Below, piece by piece: positions 23,863 to 49,691 of a stretch of 64,000 bases of DNA; positions within the stretch are counted from its first letter, which is position 1, and the number at the start of each line of letters is the position of its first letter. The notes beneath the pieces are model-generated. The model was not told the origin of the DNA. It was given only the letters and a program-made list of their open reading frames with translations, and did not search any database. A program made the translations under genes and the position numbers. Source of the stretch: Patescibacteria group bacterium (GTDB lineage Bacteria; Patescibacteriota; Minisyncoccia; Phycocordibacterales; JACOZG01). The stretch is taken from positions 3,400 to 67,399 of the forward strand of contig JAYEGE010000008.1 in assembly GCA_034658935.1 (NCBI GenBank). Reading direction: 5' to 3'.

Positions 23863-24126
23863 ATGGCCTATGTCTATATTCTTCGCTGCGATGGCAATCG
23901 TTATTATGTGGGCAGTGCAGTTGATTTACAAAAGAGGCTTAAACATCATGATAGAGGTCTAACTCCCTCGACAAAAAGATTAGGAAATTGCCACTTGGTT
24001 TTGTCTCAAGAGTACGAAACCTTGATTGATGCTAGATTAGTGGAGGGTAAAATTAAGAAGTTGAAAAGAAAAGATTACATCGCTAGAATGGTAAAAGATG
24101 GCGTAATCAAAGTAATGCCTCGGTAG
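23863..24126 (+). CDS. GIY-YIG nuclease family protein (small stand-alone)
   Basis: MAYVYILRCDGNRYYVGSAVDLQKRLKHHDRG shows the GIY-YIG motifs. Its 3' end overlaps tRNA-Phe by 10 nt. Confidence 0.75.
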   Translation: MAYVYILRCDGNRYYVGSAVDLQKRLKHHDRGLTPSTKRLGNCHLVLSQEYETLIDARLVEGKIKKLKRKDYIARMVKDGVIKVMPR

Positions 24127-24744: not shown

Positions 24745-25200
24745 TTAAAGTGACTTAACCTTCAAGCTCTGATTTTTCTGCTTATCTATTTTAGGCAAGC
24801 GGAGGGTTAAGAGGCCGTGTTTTTCGATGGCTTCGGCTTCCTCTACCTCGATTTCAGTTGGTAGGGAAATGGCGCGAGTGAAAGAGCCCCAATAGAGCTC
24901 TCGTTGAAAATAGTCTTCGGTATTTACCTCGCGAGTCACCTCTCGCCGCCCCCTGATAGTCACCATCTCACGAGTAATATTAACGTCAAGATCTTCTGGT
25001 TTTACTCCGGCCACCATTGCTCGAATGATGATCTCCGATGGCGTCTGGTAGACATCAACTGCCAGCTCTCCTTCTTCCTCGGCTTCATCCTTCCAGGTTG
25101 GTTGATCGGTGGTCTCCTCGCTCGAGATATCTAATTCCAGTTCATCTCCGTCTAGGGCGACACTGCCAGTTAGACGTTCAAAGAAAGATCTTTTTTTCAT
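24745..25200 (-). CDS. Hsp20/alpha-crystallin family small heat-shock protein
   Basis: The alpha-crystallin domain pattern (AVDVYQTPSEIIIRAMVAGVKPEDLDVNI...GLLTLRLPK) is present. Confidence 0.8.
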   Translation of the reverse strand: MKKRSFFERLTGSVALDGDELELDISSEETTDQPTWKDEAEEEGELAVDVYQTPSEIIIRAMVAGVKPEDLDVNITREMVTIRGRREVTREVNTEDYFQRELYWGSFTRAISLPTEIEVEEAEAIEKHGLLTLRLPKIDKQKNQSLKVKSL

Positions 25201-25202
25201 AA

Positions 25203-25910
25203 TTATTTTTTGTAAATGTGTTTAACTTTCTCAAAGAATAAGATAACCAAAACAGCGACTAGCCAAAGGATGAAAAAGATAGACAGGATCTGGCCTGTGT
25301 CACTAGAAATTATAAAGTAGTTGAAAATAGCGTGCAAGACGACGGCCGTTAATAAACCCCAAAAGAGATAGAGTCTTTTGCGTGCCGCTTGCCCGTAGAA
25401 GGCCAAGCCGATAAAGCCGCCGACCAGGGCCGAGGAGACAATGTGTACCAAGGTGGCGCCTAGGAAACGGAAATTACCAGTGAGAAGGAAGCTCATCCCG
25501 CCCATCGCTCCATCTTGCATAGCGCTCCAGATGAAGAGGCTATTTTCTAAAGCGGCGAAGCCGATTGCCCCAGTGATCATATAGACCATGGCGTCGACTG
25601 GCTCATCATAGGAGCGATTATGAAAGGCGACTAGATAGACAGCGCCAAATTTTAGTATTTCTTCGATGGCGGACCATATTAGGACCCCCCCGATTAACCA
25701 ACTTTGGTTGCCGAGATCAAAGGGGAAGTAGCCGTAGAGCCCCTTCTCTAGTAAGTAGGCCGGGATAACTGCTACTGCGCCGACGACAAAGACTAAAGCT
25801 AAAAGCCCGCGGGGCTCGGGGTGCCGCCTATCTTCTTTAAGCCAGAACCAAAGCCAAATCAAGGCTGGTAAGAGGCCGAGAATGGCGGCTGAGATTATTT
25901 GATTGGCCAT
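25203..25910 (-). CDS. PrsW-family intramembrane protease-like membrane protein
   Basis: Multi-TM protein with EEILKFGAVYL (the EExxK motif) and FAALENSLF (the FxxxE/N motif). Confidence 0.5.
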   Translation of the reverse strand: MANQIISAAILGLLPALIWLWFWLKEDRRHPEPRGLLALVFVVGAVAVIPAYLLEKGLYGYFPFDLGNQSWLIGGVLIWSAIEEILKFGAVYLVAFHNRSYDEPVDAMVYMITGAIGFAALENSLFIWSAMQDGAMGGMSFLLTGNFRFLGATLVHIVSSALVGGFIGLAFYGQAARKRLYLFWGLLTAVVLHAIFNYFIISSDTGQILSIFFILWLVAVLVILFFEKVKHIYKK

Positions 25911-28381: not shown

Positions 28382-29197
28382 ATGAAGAAAATTTTACTAA
28401 GCTTGGGCGTAGTTGCTTTTGCCGCTGCCCTCGTCGCTGGTGGCACCGGAGCTTTCTTCTCTGATGAGGAAGTTTCGTCCGGCAACACCTTTACCGCTGG
28501 ATCAATTGATCTCGGTATCGACAATGAGAGTTATTATAATGGTGAGGCTAACCCAGGCACTTCATGGTTAGAGGTCGCCTTTGACCTCGATGATGGCGCA
28601 GGTCCTTCTACCGATGGTAAGTACCTCTTCTTCGAATTTGATGACCTTAAGCCGGGAGATTATGGTGAAGATACTATCTCTATCCACGTCAATAATAACG
28701 AATCTTGGCTCTGTGCTGACGTTACTTTGACCAGTGATGATGATAATGCTCTAACTGAGCCTGAAGAGGATGATGGAGATGATACTGACGGCGTAGGTGA
28801 GGGTGAATTGGCCAGTGCGGTTGAGTTCATCTGGTGGGCAGACGATGGCGACAATGTCCTTGAGGACAATGAGACCCTATTGCCAGCTGGTACCTTGGGC
28901 GAATTGGGTGTTGATGGAACTGCTTCCATCACTCTCGCTGACTCTCACGTGAATATCTGGGGCGATGATGGTCCTGTTGCGGGATCTTCTACCCGCTACG
29001 TTGGTAAGGCTTGGTGTTTCGGTGAATTTACCATTAATCCTGTAGCTGAGGGCGACAATGACCCATTGGTAGACCCAGGATTCACCTGTAATGGCGCTAA
29101 CGAGAACAATATCACTCAGACCGACAGTATGACCGCTGATATTGGTTTCCGGGCAGTCCAGGCTCGTCACAATGCAGACTTCTCCTGCCGGGACTAG
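28382..29197 (+). CDS. TasA/camelysin-like secreted protein with a SipW-cognate-class signal peptide
   Basis: N-terminus AALVAGGTGAFFSDEEVSSGNTFTAGSIDL matches the SipW-cognate signal/N-domain pattern (GGTxAxFxD...TFxAGxLDL). Confidence 0.6.
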   Translation: MKKILLSLGVVAFAAALVAGGTGAFFSDEEVSSGNTFTAGSIDLGIDNESYYNGEANPGTSWLEVAFDLDDGAGPSTDGKYLFFEFDDLKPGDYGEDTISIHVNNNESWLCADVTLTSDDDNALTEPEEDDGDDTDGVGEGELASAVEFIWWADDGDNVLEDNETLLPAGTLGELGVDGTASITLADSHVNIWGDDGPVAGSSTRYVGKAWCFGEFTINPVAEGDNDPLVDPGFTCNGANENNITQTDSMTADIGFRAVQARHNADFSCRD

Positions 29198-29266
29198 ATC
29201 GAGATACCTGACAATAACGTCTAGTCTTTGACTAAACGGTAACTATTACTGATTAACAAAAACCCC

Positions 29267-30667
29267 ATGAAGAAAAGAATCCTATTAAGTCTAGGGGTCG
29301 TGGCCGTAATGGCTGCAGCGGTGGCTGGTGGCACCGGTGCTTTCTACGCTGACCATGAGGTCTCCGCGGGGAACACCTTTACTGCCGGGGCCATTGACCT
29401 CAAGATAGACAACGAGAGCTACTACAACGGGGCTGTCTCTGAAGAAACGACCTGGTTAGAACCGGCCGATCTTGATGAGGGGAAATTATTTTTCAACTTC
29501 AACGATCTTAAGCCGGATGACGAGGGCGAGGATACGATCTCTATTCATGTCAACAATAACGATGCTTGGCTATGTCTAGATATGACCTCGACCTCTAATG
29601 ATGACATCTCATCCAATGAGCCGGAGCTGGATACTTCTGATCCAGAAGACGATCCTAATGATACTTGGGACGGCGAATTGGCGGGTCTTATCGAGATGGT
29701 CTGGTGGGTAGATGATGGTGATAATGTGCTAGAGACTGGGGAAGATCTATTGTCTGACGATGTGCAGACCATCACTGAGCTCTTTGGTGATGACAAGACT
29801 TTCTCAGTGGGTTTGGCTGATGCCTTCAATAATGTTTGGACTGGCGAGGCTGGTCCAGCAAATGGCGGCGAAACTTATTATCTTGGTAAGGCTTGGTGCT
29901 ATGGTGATATGACCTTGGCCCCTGTCTCCCAAGACGGTCTAGACAGTTCTGGTCCACTTGATGGGCGCGGTTCTGGCTTTAATTGTGACGGTAGTCTGCT
30001 AGGCAACGAGTCTCAGACTGACGGCACAACTTTGGATGTAGCCTTTAGGGCTACTCAGGCTAGACATAATCCCACCTTCACTTGTAACGGTAATCAGCCG
30101 CGTACGGCGACGGTTACTGTGATTAAGGAGATTGTCAACGATAACGGAGGCGATAACGTAATTGATGACTTCCAATTGTATGTTGATAACGGTACCGTCG
30201 CCACTCCTGTAACCTCAGGCGTTTCTACTCTAGTGGTGGATGGCGATTATATCGTGAGCGAAACTGGAGTTTCTGGCTACGTGGCTTCCTTCAGTGGTGA
30301 TTGTGATGCTAATGGCCGATTGATGTTAATGCCTGGTGACAATAAGACTTGTACCATCACCAACAACGATCTCCCGGCCAATATTACGTTGATTAAAGAA
30401 GTGATAAATGATGATGGGGGCCAAGATGACCCAACGCAATTTAGGCTTCTAGTTGACGGTAATTTGGTTCCAAACAACACCTCGGTTGCGGTCGACTCTA
30501 ATGTCGCTCATACAATCGACGAGGATAATCGTCCTGGTTATCACTTTGTCAGTATCACTGGTAGCCCTGAGTGCCCAGATGTTCTTGGTGGCACAGCTAC
30601 TCTTGATGAGGGCAAAGTGATTACTTGTACGATCACTAACGACGATGACTACCCTGGTACTAACTAG
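29267..30667 (+). CDS. TasA/camelysin-like secreted protein paralog with two C-terminal Ig-like repeats (...CTITNDD)
   Basis: N-terminus AAVAGGTGAFYADHEVSAGNTFTAGAIDL. The C-terminus carries two repeats of about 95 aa, TVIKEIVNDNGG...SGYVASFSGDCDANG...CTITNND and TLIKEVINDDGG...CTITNDD. Confidence 0.6.
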   Translation: MKKRILLSLGVVAVMAAAVAGGTGAFYADHEVSAGNTFTAGAIDLKIDNESYYNGAVSEETTWLEPADLDEGKLFFNFNDLKPDDEGEDTISIHVNNNDAWLCLDMTSTSNDDISSNEPELDTSDPEDDPNDTWDGELAGLIEMVWWVDDGDNVLETGEDLLSDDVQTITELFGDDKTFSVGLADAFNNVWTGEAGPANGGETYYLGKAWCYGDMTLAPVSQDGLDSSGPLDGRGSGFNCDGSLLGNESQTDGTTLDVAFRATQARHNPTFTCNGNQPRTATVTVIKEIVNDNGGDNVIDDFQLYVDNGTVATPVTSGVSTLVVDGDYIVSETGVSGYVASFSGDCDANGRLMLMPGDNKTCTITNNDLPANITLIKEVINDDGGQDDPTQFRLLVDGNLVPNNTSVAVDSNVAHTIDEDNRPGYHFVSITGSPECPDVLGGTATLDEGKVITCTITNDDDYPGTN

Positions 30668-30753
30668 TACCTAGGTTCTGTTGAAGTCTTACTCTCTTGC
30701 TCCAGCCTGGGAAACGGGTTGGGCCAGAGGGCTAAGGCCTGAACGCCTTAAGT

Positions 30754-31281
30754 ATGAAAACTTTATTAAACGTTGGTTATTACGTGTTTATCGCCTTGGT
30801 GGTTGTCATCGGCCTCCTGCTGGTGTCTTCCTATTTCCAGTTTACTGACTCTTACCAGCTTAAAGTGGTCAAGTCTGGCTCAATGGAGCCGGCCATTAAG
30901 ACGGGTAGTTTGGTTTTGATCAGCCCAGCCAGGACTTATGGTGAGGGTGACGTTATCACTTTTGGTCGCGATGTTGGGTCTGCGGTCCCGACAACCCATA
31001 GGATTATTGGGGTGCGGGCAGAGGGCGGGACGATGCTCTATAAGACTAAGGGTGATGCCAATGAGGAGGCCGATCTCAACGAAGTTGCTCGGCGCGAGAT
31101 AATTGGTCGAGTGAATTTGAGTATTCCCATATTAGGTTATTTGTTAGATTTTGCTCGTCAGCCGATAGGCTTTGTTTTACTCATTGTCTTGCCGGCGATC
31201 ATGGTTGCGGTGGATGAGGTTTACAAAATCGTGAAGGAGATTAAAAAGATGCGTCAAAAGCGTCAAGAACATGCTGTTTAA
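30754..31281 (+). CDS. signal peptidase I, SipW-like (archaeal/eukaryotic S26B type)
   Basis: N-terminal TM helix followed by VVKSGSMEPAIKTGSLVLI, which is the SGSMEP catalytic-Ser motif of SipW-type peptidases. Length 175 aa. Confidence 0.7.
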   Translation: MKTLLNVGYYVFIALVVVIGLLLVSSYFQFTDSYQLKVVKSGSMEPAIKTGSLVLISPARTYGEGDVITFGRDVGSAVPTTHRIIGVRAEGGTMLYKTKGDANEEADLNEVARREIIGRVNLSIPILGYLLDFARQPIGFVLLIVLPAIMVAVDEVYKIVKEIKKMRQKRQEHAV

Positions 31282-33736
31282 AACAAAATCAATCGCTAGT
31301 TGTTTGATCGGAGTTGCTGTTGTTGCAGTCCTAGTCCTTCTGTCGTCCGCAGCCCTGGCCTATTACCAGGACCCAGAGGTGGGGGGCTTGGTGGGGCAGG
31401 CCACGGACCTAGACTTCATTTTAGACGTGGGGGAGTGGGCGCCGGGGGCCGATGTTGATGATTTGGAGCCGGGTGAGTCTGTCGCTCGTCTGATTAGATT
31501 GGTCGATGACGCTCCTCGCCCCTCGACTCCCTTTTGGTACCAGGTAACTGCTCTCGAGACTGGGGGTAATCCTGATTTTTGTGCGGCACTCCAATTAGAC
31601 GCCCAGGTAGACGGTGTCCCGGTCTACGATGGCCCGTTACTTAGTTTGGCTGTGGGTTTTCCACTAGCTTTCGACCCCCTGGCCTCAATTTGGGATATGC
31701 GGGTGTATTTGCCACTCGGTTCACCATCGTTAGATGATCGGCAATGCGATTTCGATTTTGTCTTTCAGGGTTGGCAGGAGCGCTTCGATGTTTTTCCAGA
31801 GGGCTATCATGATGAAGAAGTGTCCTCCAATCAGCTCTCGACTCCAGAGACACGTCAGTGTTTGATGATCAATTTTGAAACGGATGCTAATGATGCTCCG
31901 ATTGAAACTGGGCAGAGAATTAACGATGAATATTCTCCATGGGGCGTACTGATAGATGCACATAATAATAACCATCGTCACCCGGATGAGGCCATTATAT
32001 TTGACTCCGATTTACCCACTGGTCGTGATATAGATTTAGGTACTCCTAATGAAGACTTTGGTGGACCTGGCATCGGTGCTGGTGGACGTCTTGGTACACT
32101 TGGGGCCAATTTCCTTGCTCAGCATAATTTCTTGATCATTGCCGAGAACGATGAAGACGCTAACGGCGATGGCTTAGTTGATGACCCCGACGATGAAAAT
32201 GATGGCGGTTATTTGGGCTTCACCTTCGATCAACCTTCTTGGGTCAAAGAGTTGCGCCTTTTCGATATTGAGGAGCAGGGGGCCGAGGTCCAACTTTACG
32301 ATGAGGCCGGGATCAATTTCTCCACCATCGCCGTACCTCCTCTTGGTGATAACTCGGCGCAATTGGTGTATATCGACCAGGAGAATGTTAAGGAATTGCG
32401 CGTGTCTCTACCGGGCTCGGGTGCGGTGGATGATATCTGTGTCGATGTGCCACCCCCTCCAATACTCGGCTGTAGTCCTGGTTTCTGGAAAAATCATACT
32501 GAGATCTGGTTTGACCTAAATGACCCTTATGATGTTAGCCTCTTAGCCTACTTGGAAGCACAGGGAGATGGGGCCGAAGATCGACGTTATGGAGCTACCG
32601 CCCACCTGAATGCTGAATTCCCAGAGGTTGCTGTTGGGTGTGCTGAGGAAATGCCTCCAGGTACGCCACCACCACCTCCACCATCTTTCCCCGTCGTGTT
32701 AAACGAATTTCTACCGCGGCCACGAGGCGAGGACTATGGTTTTGATTTCGGTAATGATTCCAGTGTCATGCCGCAGGGCGAATGGGTGGAGCTCTACAAT
32801 AATGGTGACCAGGTATATGACCTAAGCGGTTGGTATGTTTGGGATGCCAGCAGCGATGAAAACAATAAGATTATGATTACTGTCGCCAATACCGTACCAG
32901 CCGCTACTGAGATTGCCCCCCACGATTGGTTGGTTGTGTATCTCAATCAGGCGGTCATGAATAATAACGGCGATGAAATTCGACTATATGATGGTGCTGA
33001 TGAATTAGTCGATGCTCATAGTTATAGCGGCGGTAATTATTGTGAACAAGAGCCGACACCAGGAGAGGGTAATGATACTGGCCCGAGCGAGGAGGAGTGC
33101 AATGCCGTTCCGCCGAATAAATCTTACGCCCGCATTCCTGATGGCGTTGGGGCTTGGGTGGACCCCGTTCCAACTCCGGGCGCTCCCAATATTCCAGATG
33201 ACCCAGCACTTGGTATTACCATAGAAATTGCCTTGGATGCTGTTGTGGACTTGGCTGAGAACTTCATTGTTCCATTGCGTGATATTAAGATCGTCAAGAC
33301 TACTAGCAGTGGAGGAGGTGGGTCGTCTTCGGCAGTAGTGACAGCAGCTGAAGTCGCCGATGGCCCAGCGACAGGGGGGCCGGTGGCCGTTAGTGAAGAT
33401 GACACCATGTCGGTTAGTGATACCCCAAACGCCGCAGATATTATTGAGGCAATAGATGCGTTAGGAGGCACTCCGGCAGAAGCCGTTGAGGCCGCCGAAG
33501 GTCCAGTGACGGGGGAGGCAACCGCCGTCGACGAGGGCGATACTGTATCTGCTGGCGTCACCGAGTCGGCAATGCCGGCAACCCCGGCGGACAGTAGTGC
33601 GTCTGCTGAGCCAGCGGTCCCTAGCGCCCCTGAACCAGCTCCGACCCCGGCTTCAGCGCTACCACCACCAGCCCCTGTTCCAGCCGCCGGTGGTGGTGCG
33701 GGTGCGTCTGGCGATAATCAATCAAGTGATGAATAA
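31271..33736 (+). CDS. large secreted protein with a SipW-cognate-like N-terminus, a lamin-tail domain (LTD) and a Pro/Ala/Ser-rich tail
   Basis: SSAALAYYQDPEVGG...ATDLDF is SipW-cognate-like. NEFLPRPRGEDYGFDFGNDSSVMPQGEWVELYNNGDQVYDLSGWYVWD...GDEIRLYDGADELVDAHSY matches the LTD pattern. Length 821 aa. Confidence 0.55.
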   Translation: MLFKTKSIASCLIGVAVVAVLVLLSSAALAYYQDPEVGGLVGQATDLDFILDVGEWAPGADVDDLEPGESVARLIRLVDDAPRPSTPFWYQVTALETGGNPDFCAALQLDAQVDGVPVYDGPLLSLAVGFPLAFDPLASIWDMRVYLPLGSPSLDDRQCDFDFVFQGWQERFDVFPEGYHDEEVSSNQLSTPETRQCLMINFETDANDAPIETGQRINDEYSPWGVLIDAHNNNHRHPDEAIIFDSDLPTGRDIDLGTPNEDFGGPGIGAGGRLGTLGANFLAQHNFLIIAENDEDANGDGLVDDPDDENDGGYLGFTFDQPSWVKELRLFDIEEQGAEVQLYDEAGINFSTIAVPPLGDNSAQLVYIDQENVKELRVSLPGSGAVDDICVDVPPPPILGCSPGFWKNHTEIWFDLNDPYDVSLLAYLEAQGDGAEDRRYGATAHLNAEFPEVAVGCAEEMPPGTPPPPPPSFPVVLNEFLPRPRGEDYGFDFGNDSSVMPQGEWVELYNNGDQVYDLSGWYVWDASSDENNKIMITVANTVPAATEIAPHDWLVVYLNQAVMNNNGDEIRLYDGADELVDAHSYSGGNYCEQEPTPGEGNDTGPSEEECNAVPPNKSYARIPDGVGAWVDPVPTPGAPNIPDDPALGITIEIALDAVVDLAENFIVPLRDIKIVKTTSSGGGGSSSAVVTAAEVADGPATGGPVAVSEDDTMSVSDTPNAADIIEAIDALGGTPAEAVEAAEGPVTGEATAVDEGDTVSAGVTESAMPATPADSSASAEPAVPSAPEPAPTPASALPPPAPVPAAGGGAGASGDNQSSDE

Positions 33737-35135
33737 ATTAACCCACATCTTATCCTTAGCCTGGCTCCTTGTGGCCATGAGTTGCGCCGGTACAGCTTTG
33801 GCTGATACCCGGCTGGAAGTTACCTTTGATCCTAATCCGCTCTTTGACGTCGGCAATTTTATTCCTGGCGATGAGGAGGAGGGCATAGTTACGGTGGGTA
33901 ATTTAACTGAAGTAAATCAGCAGGTGATTGCAGAGGCTATTAACGTCGACGACCCAGACACCTTGGGTCAGATGATTTCTCTGGAGATTCGTGACGGTGC
34001 TGACAATCAAATTTTTAGCGACGAGTTGGCCGAGTTCTTAAGAATAGGTGAAGTGGACTTAGCCGAGCTCCTTGCTAGCGATAGCCAGACTTTTGTTTTC
34101 ACTGCGAGATTTGAAGATACCGAAGATAATACTTGGCAAGAATCGAGCCTAGCTTTTGATCTATGTATCGGGTTCCGTGGGGATGACCAATCTATGAATT
34201 GTGGAGGGACGGTGATCGGCGAGGAACAGGATCTTGATTCCGGCGACCTCGACGGTGATACTCCTGGCGGCGGCACTGTGAGCGGCGGCCGCCGACTCAC
34301 TATCCATGACGAGCGAGTGGAGAGCATTAACGCCCCAGCTGGCACCGCTGTAATCACTTGGCGAACTAATCTCCTGGCCACCAGTCAGGTCATCTATGGT
34401 CTGTCTGAAGTCGGCCCCTATACTCTTGATCTTGAAGCGATTAATTTTGGCTATTCATCGATGACACCCGAGGACCCTATTAAGGTCCTCGATCATACAA
34501 TGACTATTGGAGGTTTGGTGCCGGGAGCCGTCTATGATTACCGAGTGGTTTCGCGCGCCTCTCCGCCAACTATTAGCCCGGCGCACCAATTTACGGTGCC
34601 GGCCTCTGACGGCACGCCTCCTTCGGAATTATTGGCACTAGTCCCCGGAAATGTTTTGCCGGCTGGTGTTAACTCACCGACGGGCGTAGGGGATCAGGAC
34701 GAAGGCGGCTCATCGCCATCCTCCTCTGGGTTGGTAGACGATAGCGTTGGTGCGGCCGGTCTTGATGGCGGGGGAGATAAGACTGGAGTAGATGGTAATG
34801 CCACCGACACTGGCAATCTTGCTGCTGCCCTGTTTGCCTTCCCAGAGGACTTGGCGGCGTTTCTAGACTGTGCCTGGGCTTGGCTGATCGCTCTCTTAAT
34901 AATCTATATTGTTTGGCGCTTGTGGCGGGCCTATCACCCTCATTATCGCTCTAGCGCTGTTTCGAGCAAAGACTTAGCCATAGACAGGTCTCATTTCTTT
35001 ATGGTTGCCATCGTCGCGGCTGGTATAATCTTGGCCCTGATGGATAGGTATTGCGCTCTCTGGCCACTAATAATCGTCTTCATTATTTTCCTAATCATTC
35101 GTATTAAATTGGGCGGCAGGCAGGTGGCGGCTTAG
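33729..35135 (+). CDS. secreted protein with a C-terminal membrane anchor
   Basis: Start placed at MNKLTHILSLAWLLVAMSCAGTALA, which is a signal peptide. The ORF track begins upstream, overlapping the previous gene. C-terminal TM helices are present. Confidence 0.5.
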   Translation: MNKLTHILSLAWLLVAMSCAGTALADTRLEVTFDPNPLFDVGNFIPGDEEEGIVTVGNLTEVNQQVIAEAINVDDPDTLGQMISLEIRDGADNQIFSDELAEFLRIGEVDLAELLASDSQTFVFTARFEDTEDNTWQESSLAFDLCIGFRGDDQSMNCGGTVIGEEQDLDSGDLDGDTPGGGTVSGGRRLTIHDERVESINAPAGTAVITWRTNLLATSQVIYGLSEVGPYTLDLEAINFGYSSMTPEDPIKVLDHTMTIGGLVPGAVYDYRVVSRASPPTISPAHQFTVPASDGTPPSELLALVPGNVLPAGVNSPTGVGDQDEGGSSPSSSGLVDDSVGAAGLDGGGDKTGVDGNATDTGNLAAALFAFPEDLAAFLDCAWAWLIALLIIYIVWRLWRAYHPHYRSSAVSSKDLAIDRSHFFMVAIVAAGIILALMDRYCALWPLIIVFIIFLIIRIKLGGRQVAA

Positions 35136-36726: not shown

Positions 36727-38139
36727 TTAGCGTTCTGCCCTGGTATAGAAAGTGAAATCGAGAGCCGACTTCTGTTTCAAGTGTCGCGCTTTCTGGTGGA
36801 GCTTATCTGCTTGCTCGTTCTCTCCGAGGTATTCGGCGAGCGCGGATGCTACTCCGAAGCTTCTGTTGTCGACGGCACATTCGATGGCACCCCGCATTAA
36901 ACGATGCAAGGATTCTTCGAACTTTGCCCGTTCGCACAGCGTGACTTCAAAACTGCAGAGACGAAAGTATCGGCCGAAGCGTGCCAGGATGATCGATGCT
37001 TTGGCGGCTTGTCCGCGCGCCAAACAATTCACCAACATGTCCTCAAAGCACTCCTGGCCTTCTTCCGACCTACACCAATCCCAGCGGCTTGAAGCCAAGG
37101 ACTCCAGCATCTCGAGATATCCCTCGTCGGTAATCTTAAGATGGTGTCCGAGCCAGGTGTAGCGAAGGGTGTCGCCGTCTTCAGACAACAGGTTTTTGAG
37201 GTCGCGCACCAAACACTGCCGGCTTGTTTCTTCAACAACCTTTCGGTTGCTGAGATACTTGCCGTCGATTTTGAGATTCTTCCACCATTCAACGATGCAA
37301 ACAGTGACAAAGTTCTCACGCATGCGCATCTGAAGCATCTGACGCCACAAGTCCTCAAGTTCTTCGATTGTAAAGTACTTAAGCGCATGGTCGATGACCA
37401 GCTGAAGCGACTTGTCCGGCATAAGCCCGGACAGACGGTTCTTATCCTCATCGGTTTGCTCGACTTTGGCAATTTCCTCTTGGGGAATTACTGCCGTAAG
37501 AAGACCGACGGGATCCTTACTACAACCGCCGTGATACACAATGGTCGCAGCGAGTACCTTTTTGTAATACTCGTTGTCAGCGAGATGCGTCCGAACAGCA
37601 AGCATGGCTGAAGCCCAGATGCCGCCGTAGGAAAATTGCTTAACCTTCGGCGTTGACCACTGAGCAAGCATGGCATCAATGATGCGACGCACCAAAGTTT
37701 GCGTTTGCTTGGAATCGAGTTTGAGTCGATTCACTTCCTCTTGAAAGTTGACCCCTTTCGTAACTTGCCCGTCGTTGGCAACGAGCCAAACAGCAAGTCG
37801 ATCGGGAGTATGCGCGTGTGGAGCGAAAACCACATTGCGAACACCATCAGGATACAGAGAATCTAGCGTAACCATAACACCATCTCCTTGAGCGTGCTCC
37901 ATGCCATTAGGCTGAGCGTGCTCCGTTTGAGTTATGAGGGCTTCAAAAGCCCTCTGACCATGATCCCTGCGCAACATTGCCAGGAATCTTGCTGCTTTCG
38001 CCTGCCTACGAGGCCAGCGAGTTGAAGCCAATTCATATGCCTTGTTTGGAGTTTCTGTCCGTGCAAGGTGTATGAGCTCCGCATGTCGCAGAGCAGGCTT
38101 CGCGAGCTTCTGAAGCTCTTCTGAAGTATACTCCGGCAT
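36727..38139 (-). CDS. GC-rich orphan hypothetical protein (470 aa, cytoplasmic, no recognisable domain)
   Basis: Long clean ORF with no signal peptide and no motif I can recognise. GC is clearly above the genome background. It is flanked by a terminator and tRNA-Val. Confidence 0.5.
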   Translation of the reverse strand: MPEYTSEELQKLAKPALRHAELIHLARTETPNKAYELASTRWPRRQAKAARFLAMLRRDHGQRAFEALITQTEHAQPNGMEHAQGDGVMVTLDSLYPDGVRNVVFAPHAHTPDRLAVWLVANDGQVTKGVNFQEEVNRLKLDSKQTQTLVRRIIDAMLAQWSTPKVKQFSYGGIWASAMLAVRTHLADNEYYKKVLAATIVYHGGCSKDPVGLLTAVIPQEEIAKVEQTDEDKNRLSGLMPDKSLQLVIDHALKYFTIEELEDLWRQMLQMRMRENFVTVCIVEWWKNLKIDGKYLSNRKVVEETSRQCLVRDLKNLLSEDGDTLRYTWLGHHLKITDEGYLEMLESLASSRWDWCRSEEGQECFEDMLVNCLARGQAAKASIILARFGRYFRLCSFEVTLCERAKFEESLHRLMRGAIECAVDNRSFGVASALAEYLGENEQADKLHQKARHLKQKSALDFTFYTRAER

Positions 38140-49103: not shown

Positions 49104-49691
49104 TTAATAATTACCCGGGGCCCCGGGTAAGATTGCCAAACGGGCTGGTGGGAAGAGGCGGACTAGGGCCCGGCCAGTGATCATCTCTCCAGGCAGGGCC
49201 CCCCAATTGCGGGAGTCAAAACTAACATCACGATTATCTCCCATGACAAAATACTCGTTGTCCTTGAGGGAGAGCTCGGTGTCGATCAAGGGGTTCTCTG
49301 GGCTCTGAAGGTATGGTTCATCCACATTAATTATTTGTCCGTCGCGCAGAATGTTGATCTTATTATTAGTGATTACTATCTGTTCGCCAGGCAAACCGAT
49401 GATTCGTTTGATGAAGAACTTCTTTGGGTTTTTGGGGTAGCGGAAAATAATAACTTCTCCTCGTGTTGGTTTGCGAAAGAGGTAAGAGGCCTCATCAACG
49501 ATCAAATACTCCTTGTCCTCAAAAGTTGGGTACATTGAGGCCCCGCTGACGATGAAGGGTTGAGCAATATAAGTTCGGATGGGGATGACAATAATCAGAG
49601 TGAGGATGACCATCTTGATTACTTCCCAGGCGGTAGACTTAAAATTGCTAGACATGAGACCCAGTTTATTACAAATAAATGGCTGAGGCAA
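49104..49691 (-). CDS. lepB: signal peptidase I (bacterial type)
   Basis: SGASMYPTF (Ser box) and GDNRDVSFDSRNWG (box E). Confidence 0.85.
   Translation of the reverse strand: MPQPFICNKLGLMSSNFKSTAWEVIKMVILTLIIVIPIRTYIAQPFIVSGASMYPTFEDKEYLIVDEASYLFRKPTRGEVIIFRYPKNPKKFFIKRIIGLPGEQIVITNNKINILRDGQIINVDEPYLQSPENPLIDTELSLKDNEYFVMGDNRDVSFDSRNWGALPGEMITGRALVRLFPPARLAILPGAPGNY

Follow-up and report, generated by a model that had tools for sequence, protein, structure and literature searches.

Bacillus cereus carries a sipW-tasA ... calY locus with two TasA paralogs and no TapA. In B. subtilis, the tapA-sipW-tasA locus encodes a dedicated ER-type SipW beside its substrates, and the donor strand of TasA consists of the first 11 mature residues (PMC9674648, PMC10151520). 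The bundling pili of Pyrobaculum calidifontis, AbpA/AbpB, combine a TasA-like donor-strand pilin with a TapA-like partner (PMC9245690; PDB 7UEG); the archaeal operon is without a dedicated SipW, a generic signal peptidase being used instead (PMC9245690). Wang et al. 2022 (PMC9245690) also listed Patescibacteria among the phyla with TasA (PF12389) homologs, and our literature search for TasA, SipW and camelysin in Patescibacteria/CPR returned nothing past that one sentence. These bacteria account for much of bacterial diversity and as a rule live attached to another cell, and their attachment has so far been discussed nearly exclusively in terms of type IV pili.

Here we describe a locus from an ultra-small, Parcubacteria/Paceibacteria-like member of the Patescibacteria (CPR), contained in a DNA stretch of 64,000 nucleotides (the window). 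Five co-directional genes in the order A-B-sipW-C-D occupy positions 28382-35135 (Table 1), and we read them, with a probability of roughly 60%, as a single operon encoding a TasA/SipW-type extracellular fibre system. The one-operon reading is supported by the overlaps between genes: the start of C overlaps the stop of sipW by 11 nt, and the likely start of D overlaps the stop of C by 8 nt (ATGAATAA). Counts from a promoter and terminator scan across the operon were no better than chance. A first-pass annotation of this DNA had already recognized a sipW-like gene with an SGSMEP motif in a co-directional block, and both the open reading frames and the motif were confirmed.

Table 1. Positions within the window of the five genes and of a second signal peptidase gene.
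Feature	Coordinates	Strand	Basis
A: short TasA-like subunit, 271 aa	28382..29197	+	
B: long TasA-like paralog, 466 aa	29267..30667	+	
SipW-type (ER/archaeal-type) signal peptidase I, 175 aa	30754..31281	+	TIGR02228, NF046067, SEC11 relatives
C: multidomain protein, 821 aa	31271..33736	+	LTD match, family motif, domain map
D: membrane-anchored, FN3-like domain, 468 aa	33729..35135	+	likely ATG start
LepB-type signal peptidase I, context only	49104..49691	-	TIGR02227, motif scan

The peptidase is a signal peptidase I of the ER/archaeal type, distinct from the LepB of the same cell, which bears out the earlier view that it is not an ordinary LepB-type enzyme. It scored 108 bits against TIGR02228 (archaeal/ER-type SPase I; cutoff 51.85) and 28.7 bits, below the cutoff of 47, against the LepB model TIGR02227. 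Its best relatives in the PDB are human SEC11C/SEC11A (E 7e-9), and a HMMER alignment places its His on the SEC11 His. S43 (SGSMEP), H82 (TTHR) and D101 (KGDAN) are invariant in 73 aligned sequences; we take these to be the catalytic residues on the strength of published SipW/SEC11 work, and the sequence thus predicts Ser-His(-Asp) residues in place of a Ser-Lys dyad. Transmembrane helices are predicted at both the N- and the C-terminus. The window contains a separate, canonical LepB (SGASMYPT ... GDNRDVSFDSR; 129.6 bits against TIGR02227, cutoff 47), so that the SipW-type enzyme is a second, dedicated peptidase. By the NCBI criterion its sequence makes it SipW-like, not a SipW orthologue, since it reached 131.5 bits against the SipW equivalog NF046067, below the cutoff of 190.

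The paralogs A and B are both secreted, and each combines a SipW-cognate signal with a TasA-like beta-sandwich. Their identity is 56% over 280 aa (E 1e-98), and they have in common the N-terminus ...AGGTGAF(F/Y)(S/A)D.EVS.GNTFTAG.IDL, in agreement with the first-pass claim of a shared SipW-cognate/TasA-camelysin N-terminus. In A, a signal peptide (residues ~1-24) with predicted SipW cleavage at ...GGTGA/FFSDEE is followed by a donor-strand-like motif (residues 25-46) and a beta-sandwich core with four invariant Cys, for which we know of no counterpart in Bacillus TasA. Signal, donor motif and TasA-like core recur in B (residues 1-275) and are followed by two C-terminal SpaA_2 prealbumin-like domains (two stretches matching PF19403, E 6.5e-13). 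The family models singled out in the earlier annotation recognized A, which lay above the cutoff of TIGR04088 cognate_SipW (30.6 bits, cutoff 19) and above the gathering threshold of Pfam PF12389 Peptidase_M73 (38.1 bits, threshold 22.5). B stayed just under both, at 13.3 bits, though its motif is visibly the same as that of A, and at 21.2 bits. The Peptidase_M73 model is 196 positions long, and its match to A is limited to residues 6-52, that is, to the 47 residues of signal and N-terminal strand. Against the TasA equivalog NF046066 (cutoff 450) A scored 15.9 bits and B 14.7 bits, which does not support orthology to B. subtilis TasA. Searched against the PDB, the A-family profile gave no match even at E 10, and sequence continuity with canonical TasA past the N-terminus could therefore not be demonstrated.

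The TasA fibre 8AUR was the top match for A in two independent structure searches, in line with the TasA-like jelly roll that the earlier annotation had proposed to test for, and the archaeal bundling pilin 7UEG was the second Foldseek match; the mature domain has a TasA-like jelly-roll/beta-sandwich fold. The match is moderate, as generic carbohydrate-binding jelly rolls score almost as high. The nearest structural relatives are one-dimensional donor-strand filaments, namely TasA, AbpA, the Sulfolobus 0406 thread and CanX. Within the A family, invariant residues are most tightly clustered in the segment directly after the predicted cleavage site (residues 28-53). In the monomer model this segment has the lowest confidence and is left unpacked, as expected where the partner of the strand is another subunit.

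C-type proteins display the same kind of N-terminal motif ahead of a compact beta-sandwich, here termed C_N. In C, a predicted signal peptide with cleavage at ...AALA/YYQDPE precedes a degenerate donor-like motif, C_N (residues ~29-190), a ~190-aa module matched by no Pfam model (residues ~192-385), a Cys-rich linker (395-470), a lamin tail domain (LTD, 475-640) and an A/P/G/S-rich tail of 181 aa (641-821). The LTD and the tail had both been noted before, and the former was recovered by PF00932 at residues 475-586 (E 1.1e-15; 58.4 bits, gathering threshold 34.3). The related N-terminus that had also been ascribed to C was upheld for the family and not for C alone, whose own motif (AYYQDPEVGG..ATDLDF) is degenerate, lacks the near-invariant Asn and gives no TIGR04088 match. 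Among the C_N family members, TIGR04088 matches in just 5 of 42 (E<0.1); clear cognate motifs nevertheless occur in homologs of C, e.g. SFYNDTETASGNVQTAGQLDF, the cognate-like motif sits 5-36 residues upstream of C_N, and the C_N-family and A-family N-termini align by hhalign at 95% (E 3e-8). In local mode only this 37-column N-terminal motif aligns; a 173-column hhalign result was discarded because the run was effectively global. The cores of C_N and of the TasA-like proteins were not alignable by hhalign (probability 1.8%), and consequently we claim no sequence homology between them. Judged by sequence, the link of C to the SipW-cognate substrates is clear only at the family level.

C showed no homology to the core domain of TapA, either in sequence or in fold. 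The N-terminus of the C_N family does resemble the donor strand of TasA, a trait that speaks to the working mode of C and not to family membership. The homolog search with full-length C was dominated by low-complexity and mobile-domain candidates and left 5 full-length relatives; the structure was therefore modelled for the corresponding domain of D (D_N), which has a deep alignment, and not for C_N.

D was first presented as a 512-aa secreted protein with a C-terminal anchor. The anchor was found, in the form of three predicted C-terminal transmembrane helices (about 34848-35099), and the length was revised. The 512-aa frame is the maximal GTG ORF from 33597, which overlaps C by 140 nt and is probably over-extended; D probably starts at ATG 33729 (MNKLTHILSLAWLLVAMSCAGTALA...), giving 468 aa, and public gene calls start it at 33777 (452 aa). 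The protein has an ordinary AxA signal (TALA/DT), then the beta-sandwich D_N (residues ~24-165), homologous to C_N but without the donor motif, an FN3-like domain (34326-34595) and a G/S/D-rich linker. The SipW-cognate motif occurs in 0 of 118 members of the D family and D has no match to TIGR04088. Consequently, the locus encodes three substrates of the cognate type and not four, and the suggestion that D is a fourth has to be abandoned.

We surveyed 78 Patescibacteria loci, 72 of which do not run off the contig and 62 of which are assessable for the C-type domain. SipW lies directly downstream of one to four tandem TasA-like genes in every assessable locus (72/72). The locus, whose conservation in related genomes the first-pass annotation had proposed to check, is conserved across Patescibacteria. 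Two or more TasA-like paralogs are present in 73/78 loci, the pair of a short and a long TasA-like protein is seen again in related loci, and relatives of A and B bear variable C-terminal add-ons, e.g. VWA and SpaA_2. In 51 of the 62 loci a C_N domain comes after SipW, and 18 of those 51 (18/78 overall) have the two fused in frame. The topology of these 18 SipW-TM-motif-C_N fusions puts the motif on the same membrane side as the catalytic domain. D is absent from most loci. The module (TasA-like)n-SipW-C_N is thus conserved across the phylum, with the C_N-SipW fusion in many genomes.

The TasA/SipW module is common in Patescibacteria: it was found in at least 271 genomes at species level, and the protein database contains 1720 homologs. 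The idea of a system uncharacterised for this lineage holds for experimental work in the literature searched; it does not hold for annotation, as NCBI auto-annotation already names the homologs "TasA family protein" (some CPR homologs "CalY family protein") and the phylum is listed in PMC9245690. It is the accessory architecture (C, D and the SipW fusions) that appears to be undescribed, whereas the TasA-type kind itself is known.

By analogy with B. subtilis TasA/TapA (PMC9674648, PMC10151520), the most likely mechanism is a donor-strand-exchange fibre in which A and B would make up the shaft, C would nucleate it in the manner of TapA or form its tip, and D would be the membrane anchor; the operon probably builds a cell-surface fibre. 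SipW would cut A, B and C just ahead of an aromatic pair (GA/FF, GA/FY and LA/YY, respectively), thereby baring the conserved N-terminal strand. The bared strand of the TapA-like C would complement the first A or B subunit and nucleate polymerisation, and C, with its LTD and extra module, would come to lie at the distal tip, probably as an adhesin. Donor-strand exchange would join A and B, the latter carrying SpaA_2 stalk domains, into a head-to-tail polymer, and D, a strand acceptor only, would take the last free donor strand and tie the fibre to the membrane. That C could serve as both substrate and nucleator is suggested by the motif upstream of C_N, by its hhalign match to the A family and by the same-side topology in the fusions. 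The fibre would probably serve to attach the cell to a surface or a host, or to form a matrix. More speculatively, Patescibacteria might assemble a TasA-type donor-strand pilus that is anchored to the cell, using a minimal, so far undescribed route, in which a SipW-type peptidase, often one polypeptide with its first substrate, frees the C nucleator and tip adhesin, polymerisation proceeds outward, and the donor-less membrane sandwich D terminates and anchors the fibre; such a pilus could be a second, non-type-IV appendage with which these episymbionts hold hosts or surfaces. We offer this fuller scenario only tentatively.

The moderate fold match, with carbohydrate-binding jelly rolls nearly equal in score, could also be reconciled with TasA-like proteins that do not polymerise and act as monomeric secreted or surface adhesins, or binding proteins, on a dedicated SipW export and processing route, C and D being independent surface proteins that are merely co-transcribed. 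The adhesin-type modules of the locus (SpaA_2 in B, LTD and the unknown repeat module in C, FN3 in D) and the variable add-ons of the relatives point in the same direction. We nevertheless consider this rather unlikely, because conservation in the family peaks at the post-cleavage strand, unpacked in the monomer model, and not at a putative binding surface. The same motif, moreover, recurs on the C-type proteins although their core sequence is unrelated, which is hard to account for unless the strand itself is functional, and tandem paralogs with a TapA-like third component parallel known fibre operons. Lower still is the probability that the proteins cover the cell with a two-dimensional layer or sheath resembling an S-layer, without discrete fibres and with D as its membrane tether. 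Cryo-ET of CPR cells has revealed surface layers as well as pili-like appendages, and several paralogs per locus with one membrane-anchored component would suit a coat, but the closest structural relatives are one-dimensional filaments, profile searches of the five proteins gave no matches to SLH or other S-layer families, and D is missing from most loci.

The Pfam name behind the match of A, "Peptidase_M73, camelysin metallo-endopeptidase", might be taken to mean that A and B are camelysin-type metalloproteases. This identity was rejected and strikes us as highly improbable, since the match spans only the signal and N-terminal strand, HExxH is absent from all five proteins and the solved members of the family are structural fibre proteins. 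A sortase-assembled (SpaA-type) pilus was rejected as well, LPXTG being absent from every ORF of the window and from the last 60 residues of 120 A-family proteins; the likeness of B to SpaA-type pili is confined to the SpaA_2 stalk-domain fold.

Were the proteins non-polymerising adhesins, the finding would shrink to secreted proteins that have a signal peptidase of their own, a matter of routine annotation. The module is nevertheless widespread enough to be a concrete candidate, open to testing, for a second fibre system. How TasA-type fibres could be started and anchored is also suggested, by the SipW-substrate fusions and by the donor-less, membrane-anchored D, respectively.

Compared with known systems, the locus is evolutionarily unrelated to chaperone-usher (type 1/P) pili, with SipW-type processing and neither usher, periplasmic chaperone nor outer membrane. 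It shares with AbpA/AbpB a TasA-like donor-strand pilin (predicted in the case of A) and a TapA-like partner, but differs in that a dedicated SipW is universal in the loci surveyed. B. cereus likewise has two paralogous TasA-like subunits beside SipW; accessory proteins of the C_N and D kinds are additions of the CPR loci, and no sequence-level orthology was found, as the equivalog models fail. From B. subtilis the locus differs in its gene order (subunits-sipW-accessory versus tapA-sipW-tasA), its two to four subunit paralogs in tandem, to which SpaA_2 or VWA domains are often appended, the undetectable similarity of the core sequence of A to TasA, the four invariant Cys of A, the C-SipW fusions elsewhere in the phylum, the extra membrane-anchored D without a donor strand, and its Patescibacterial host. 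In common with B. subtilis (PMC9674648, PMC10151520) are the dedicated ER-type SipW encoded beside its substrates, a peptidase gene overlapping a neighbouring accessory gene, substrates in which a cognate signal precedes a conserved N-terminal strand, a TasA-like beta-sandwich in the major subunit, for which 8AUR is the best PDB match, and, in C as in TapA, a TasA-like N-terminal strand on a different body with a disordered tail.

The co-directional gene block proposed for 28382-35135 in the first-pass annotation was found as described, with five ORFs: two TasA-like paralogs (A and B), a SipW-type peptidase, the LTD protein C and the membrane-anchored protein D. Since valS upstream is divergent and tsaD downstream is convergent, the block forms a self-contained operon. 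Promoter and terminator scans of the operon gave counts no better than chance. The 512-aa version of D corresponds to the maximal GTG ORF, which overlaps C by 140 nt. From the ATG at 33729, within GATGAATAA, D overlaps the C stop by 8 nt and its N-terminus reads as a classical signal peptide (MNKLTHILSLAWLLVAMSCAGTALA/DT), which public gene calls cut short by placing the start at 33777. Three neighbours beyond valS, among them a PrsW-like protease (NF033739 75 bits, below the cutoff of 225), show nothing that ties them to the operon.

Features of the window and coordinates of fusions in relatives' loci; SipW-C_N fusions occur in 13 more loci
Feature	Position	Strand	Remark
A	28382-29197	+	271 aa
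B	29267-30667	+	466 aa
SipW-type peptidase	30754-31281	+	175 aa
C	31271-33736	+	821 aa; 11-nt overlap with peptidase stop
Module of C	31844-32425	+	residues ~192-385
D	33729-35135	+	468 aa from the probable ATG start
LepB	49104-49691	-	SGASMYPT and GDNRDVSFDSR boxes
Small ORF	23863-24126	+	GIY-YIG-like by eye
HSP20	24745-25200	-	Pfam listing
PrsW-like intramembrane protease	25203-25910	-	beyond valS
ORF past tsaD	36727-38139	-	470 aa; no NCBIfam or precomputed Pfam matches
SipW-C_N fusion, L040	4128-5732		in frame
SipW-C_N fusion, L008	13442-15010		in frame
SipW-C_N fusion, L061	11672-13273		in frame
SipW-C_N fusion, L074	1544-3175		in frame
SipW-C_N fusion, L069	11990-13831		in frame
SipW-LTD-like fusion, L004	11034-12143		369 aa; Woesebacteria
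SipW-LTD-like fusion, L014	10025-11134		369 aa; Woesebacteria

The peptidase had been called sipW-like, and it is not an ordinary LepB: it passes TIGR02228, the archaeal/ER-type SPase I model (108 bits, cutoff 51.85), and fails the bacterial LepB model. It scores below the cutoff of the Bacillus SipW equivalog (131.5 bits, cutoff 190), and among solved structures human SEC11C and SEC11A are the closest (E 7e-9). Residues S43 (SGSMEP), H82 (TTHR) and D101 (KGDAN) are invariant across 73 aligned relatives, and TM helices are predicted at both termini. As the window also contains a canonical LepB (TIGR02227 129.6 bits), the genome has both SPase types, with the SipW-type enzyme as the second and dedicated one.

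The family assignment suggested for the paralogs held for A, which scores above the cutoffs of TIGR04088 (30.6 bits, cutoff 19) and of Pfam Peptidase_M73 (PF12389; 38.1 bits, cutoff 22.5, match limited to residues 6-52), whereas B falls slightly under both cutoffs. The two share 56% identity across 280 residues, beyond which B carries two SpaA_2 prealbumin-like domains. Profiles of the A family matched no PDB sequence, so that the likeness of A to canonical TasA is confined, in sequence, to the signal peptide and first strand. The expected TasA-like fold was recovered from the AF2 model of A (pLDDT 88.1, pTM 0.77), for which a Foldseek search of the PDB placed the TasA fibre 8AUR at the top (E 2.6e-4, prob 1.0), followed by the archaeal bundling pilin 7UEG. 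Neither LPXTG nor a C-terminal TM was found in A or B. Four cysteines of A (C111, C212, C236 and C269) are invariant in 40 family members, which suggests two disulfides in an extracellular subunit; we know of no counterpart in Bacillus TasA. In the same 40-sequence alignment the densest invariant positions lie at residues 28-53, directly after the predicted cleavage site GGTGA/FF, and this segment is the unpacked, lowest-confidence part of the monomer model. The donor strand of B. subtilis TasA, which enters the next subunit, is made up of the first 11 mature residues (PMC9674648), and we infer that the segment in A matches the expectation for such a strand.

The locus is conserved in related genomes. 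For A and C, NCBI has proteins of 100% identity from a "Patescibacteria group bacterium" MAG. Close homologs all come from Patescibacteria/CPR, including Vogel-, Kaiser-, Zambryski-, Nomura-, Yonath-, Woese- and Daviesbacteria, and when one genome per GTDB species was scanned, 271 genomes encoded a close relative. Within the best 78 loci from these, with ORFs classed by phmmer and iterated HMMs made from the window proteins, the SipW-type gene lies directly 3' of one to four tandem TasA-like genes in 72; the remaining six run to a contig edge. At least two TasA-like paralogs are present in 73/78. The N-terminal beta-sandwich domain of C (C_N, residues ~29-190) follows SipW in 51 of the 62 loci with enough downstream sequence, as a separate gene or fused in frame to the SipW C-terminus (18 loci). 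A D-type gene comes next in 13 loci, which are the sub-clade nearest to the window (TasA-like, TasA-like, SipW, C-type, D-type). Two loci (L015, L025) have operons typical of Patescibacteria under the record titles "uncultured Gammaproteobacteria" and "uncultured Pseudomonadales"; the title "uncultured Candidatus Saccharibacteria" is given to many other loci. Such titles probably stem from imprecise automatic labelling of MAGs and do not name the true hosts. Beside the two SipW-LTD-like fusions lie VWA-containing TasA-like genes, in L004 together with type II/IV secretion ATPase and platform genes.

The LTD and the P/A/S-rich stalk claimed for C were borne out; its SipW-cognate-type N-terminus is clear in relatives, where a cognate-type motif directly precedes C_N (e.g. 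SFYNDTETASGNVQTAGQLDF, GYYNDIESSTENAFRAGSVDF), and degenerate in the window copy (AYYQDPEVGGLVGQATDLDF). The N-termini of the C_N and A families align (hhalign 95%, E 3e-8, 37 columns), whereas their cores are not alignable in sequence, and the lone PDB match of the C_N profile is a weak one to TasA 8AUR (E 0.37, over the N-terminal 55 residues). The motif HMM of the A family matched 173/205 A-type, 22/58 C-type, 0/15 D-type and 8/2981 other ORFs, and at least six of these eight either are long SipW fusions or directly follow SipW. In the SipW-C_N fusions, SipW with its two TM helices is joined through a linker of ~80-100 aa to a third TM helix, behind which come the motif, C_N and an acidic tail. 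As this topology places motif and catalytic domain on one side of the membrane, C-type proteins would be SipW substrates (a "Rosetta-stone" argument); the fusion suggests a peptidase made with its own substrate, possibly self-processing. Behind C_N, a ~190-aa module without a Pfam model, whose acidic DANGDGLVDDPDDENDGG loop may bind Ca, recurs in unrelated large surface proteins, Bacteroidota HYR-domain proteins (P0127, P0128) among them, either singly or as two to three copies in tandem. It is followed by a Cys-rich linker, the LTD and a 181-aa A/P/G/S-rich tail without TM.

At least 129 proteins make up the D family; all are from Patescibacteria and are annotated as "fibronectin type III domain-containing" and nothing further. 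Its N-terminal domain, a confident beta-sandwich in the AF2 model (residues 1-145; overall pLDDT 84.7), and C_N are homologs (hhalign 97%, E 6e-11, 115 columns). The matched columns begin past the donor motif, and the match still reaches 96.6% with the motif removed from the C_N profile. The C-terminal anchor proposed for D stood, with a TM segment in 115/118 family proteins, whereas the cognate motif was found in 0/118. Because of this TM segment, D is, besides the peptidase, the only operon component predicted to be membrane-retained after signal-peptide removal. The sandwich of D is TasA-compatible but has no strand to donate.

We favor a TasA-like polymerising fibre as the product of the operon, with a probability of about 0.6. 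SipW would strip A, B and C of their signal peptides and so expose the conserved strand. Nucleation would be TapA-like, with the strand of C complementing the first subunit (A or B), and each complemented subunit would free its own strand for the next, as in TasA-like donor-strand exchange. D would take the last strand, tying the fibre to the membrane, and the LTD and extra module of C would lie at the distal end, likely as an adhesin. The assignment of C to the tip and D to the anchor is less certain than the fibre itself and rather doubtful. What the analysis establishes are the type of the peptidase, the motifs of the substrates, the folds, the homologies, the conservation and the fusions; cleavage sites, polymerisation, polarity and the parts played by C and D are inferred.

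That these proteins are instead non-polymerising adhesins with a common dedicated peptidase appears unlikely. A surface lattice or sheath is less probable still. A camelysin-type protease is highly improbable, and the HExxH motif occurs in none of the five operon proteins.

By the TIGR04088, PF12389 and TIGR02228 models and by fold, the system belongs to the TasA/SipW class; since both equivalog models fail, the Bacillus proteins are not its orthologs. The TasA-type kind is already known in the phylum at the annotation level: NCBI labels Patescibacteria homologs "TasA family" or "CalY family", and in Wang et al. (2022) Patescibacteria are named as one of the phyla that have PF12389 homologs (PMC9245690). 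Beyond that mention, full-text searches turned up no publication dealing with this operon, or with SipW or camelysin, in Patescibacteria. Within the searched literature, the features that appear undescribed are C_N as a conserved component, the frequent fusion of C_N to SipW, the membrane-anchored D without donor strand and the four invariant cysteines of A. The presence of TasA homologs here will not surprise a specialist; the architecture offers a directly testable model for a non-type-IV appendage of episymbiotic ultra-small bacteria, and for the nucleation and anchoring of TasA-type fibres. TapA, which nucleates TasA fibres through a donated N-terminal strand (PMC10151520, PMC9674648), is built on the same plan as C: the N-terminus is donor-like, the body distinct and the tail disordered. 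The Patescibacteria system would work like the Bacillus tapA-sipW-tasA and sipW-tasA-calY systems and the archaeal AbpA/AbpB pili.
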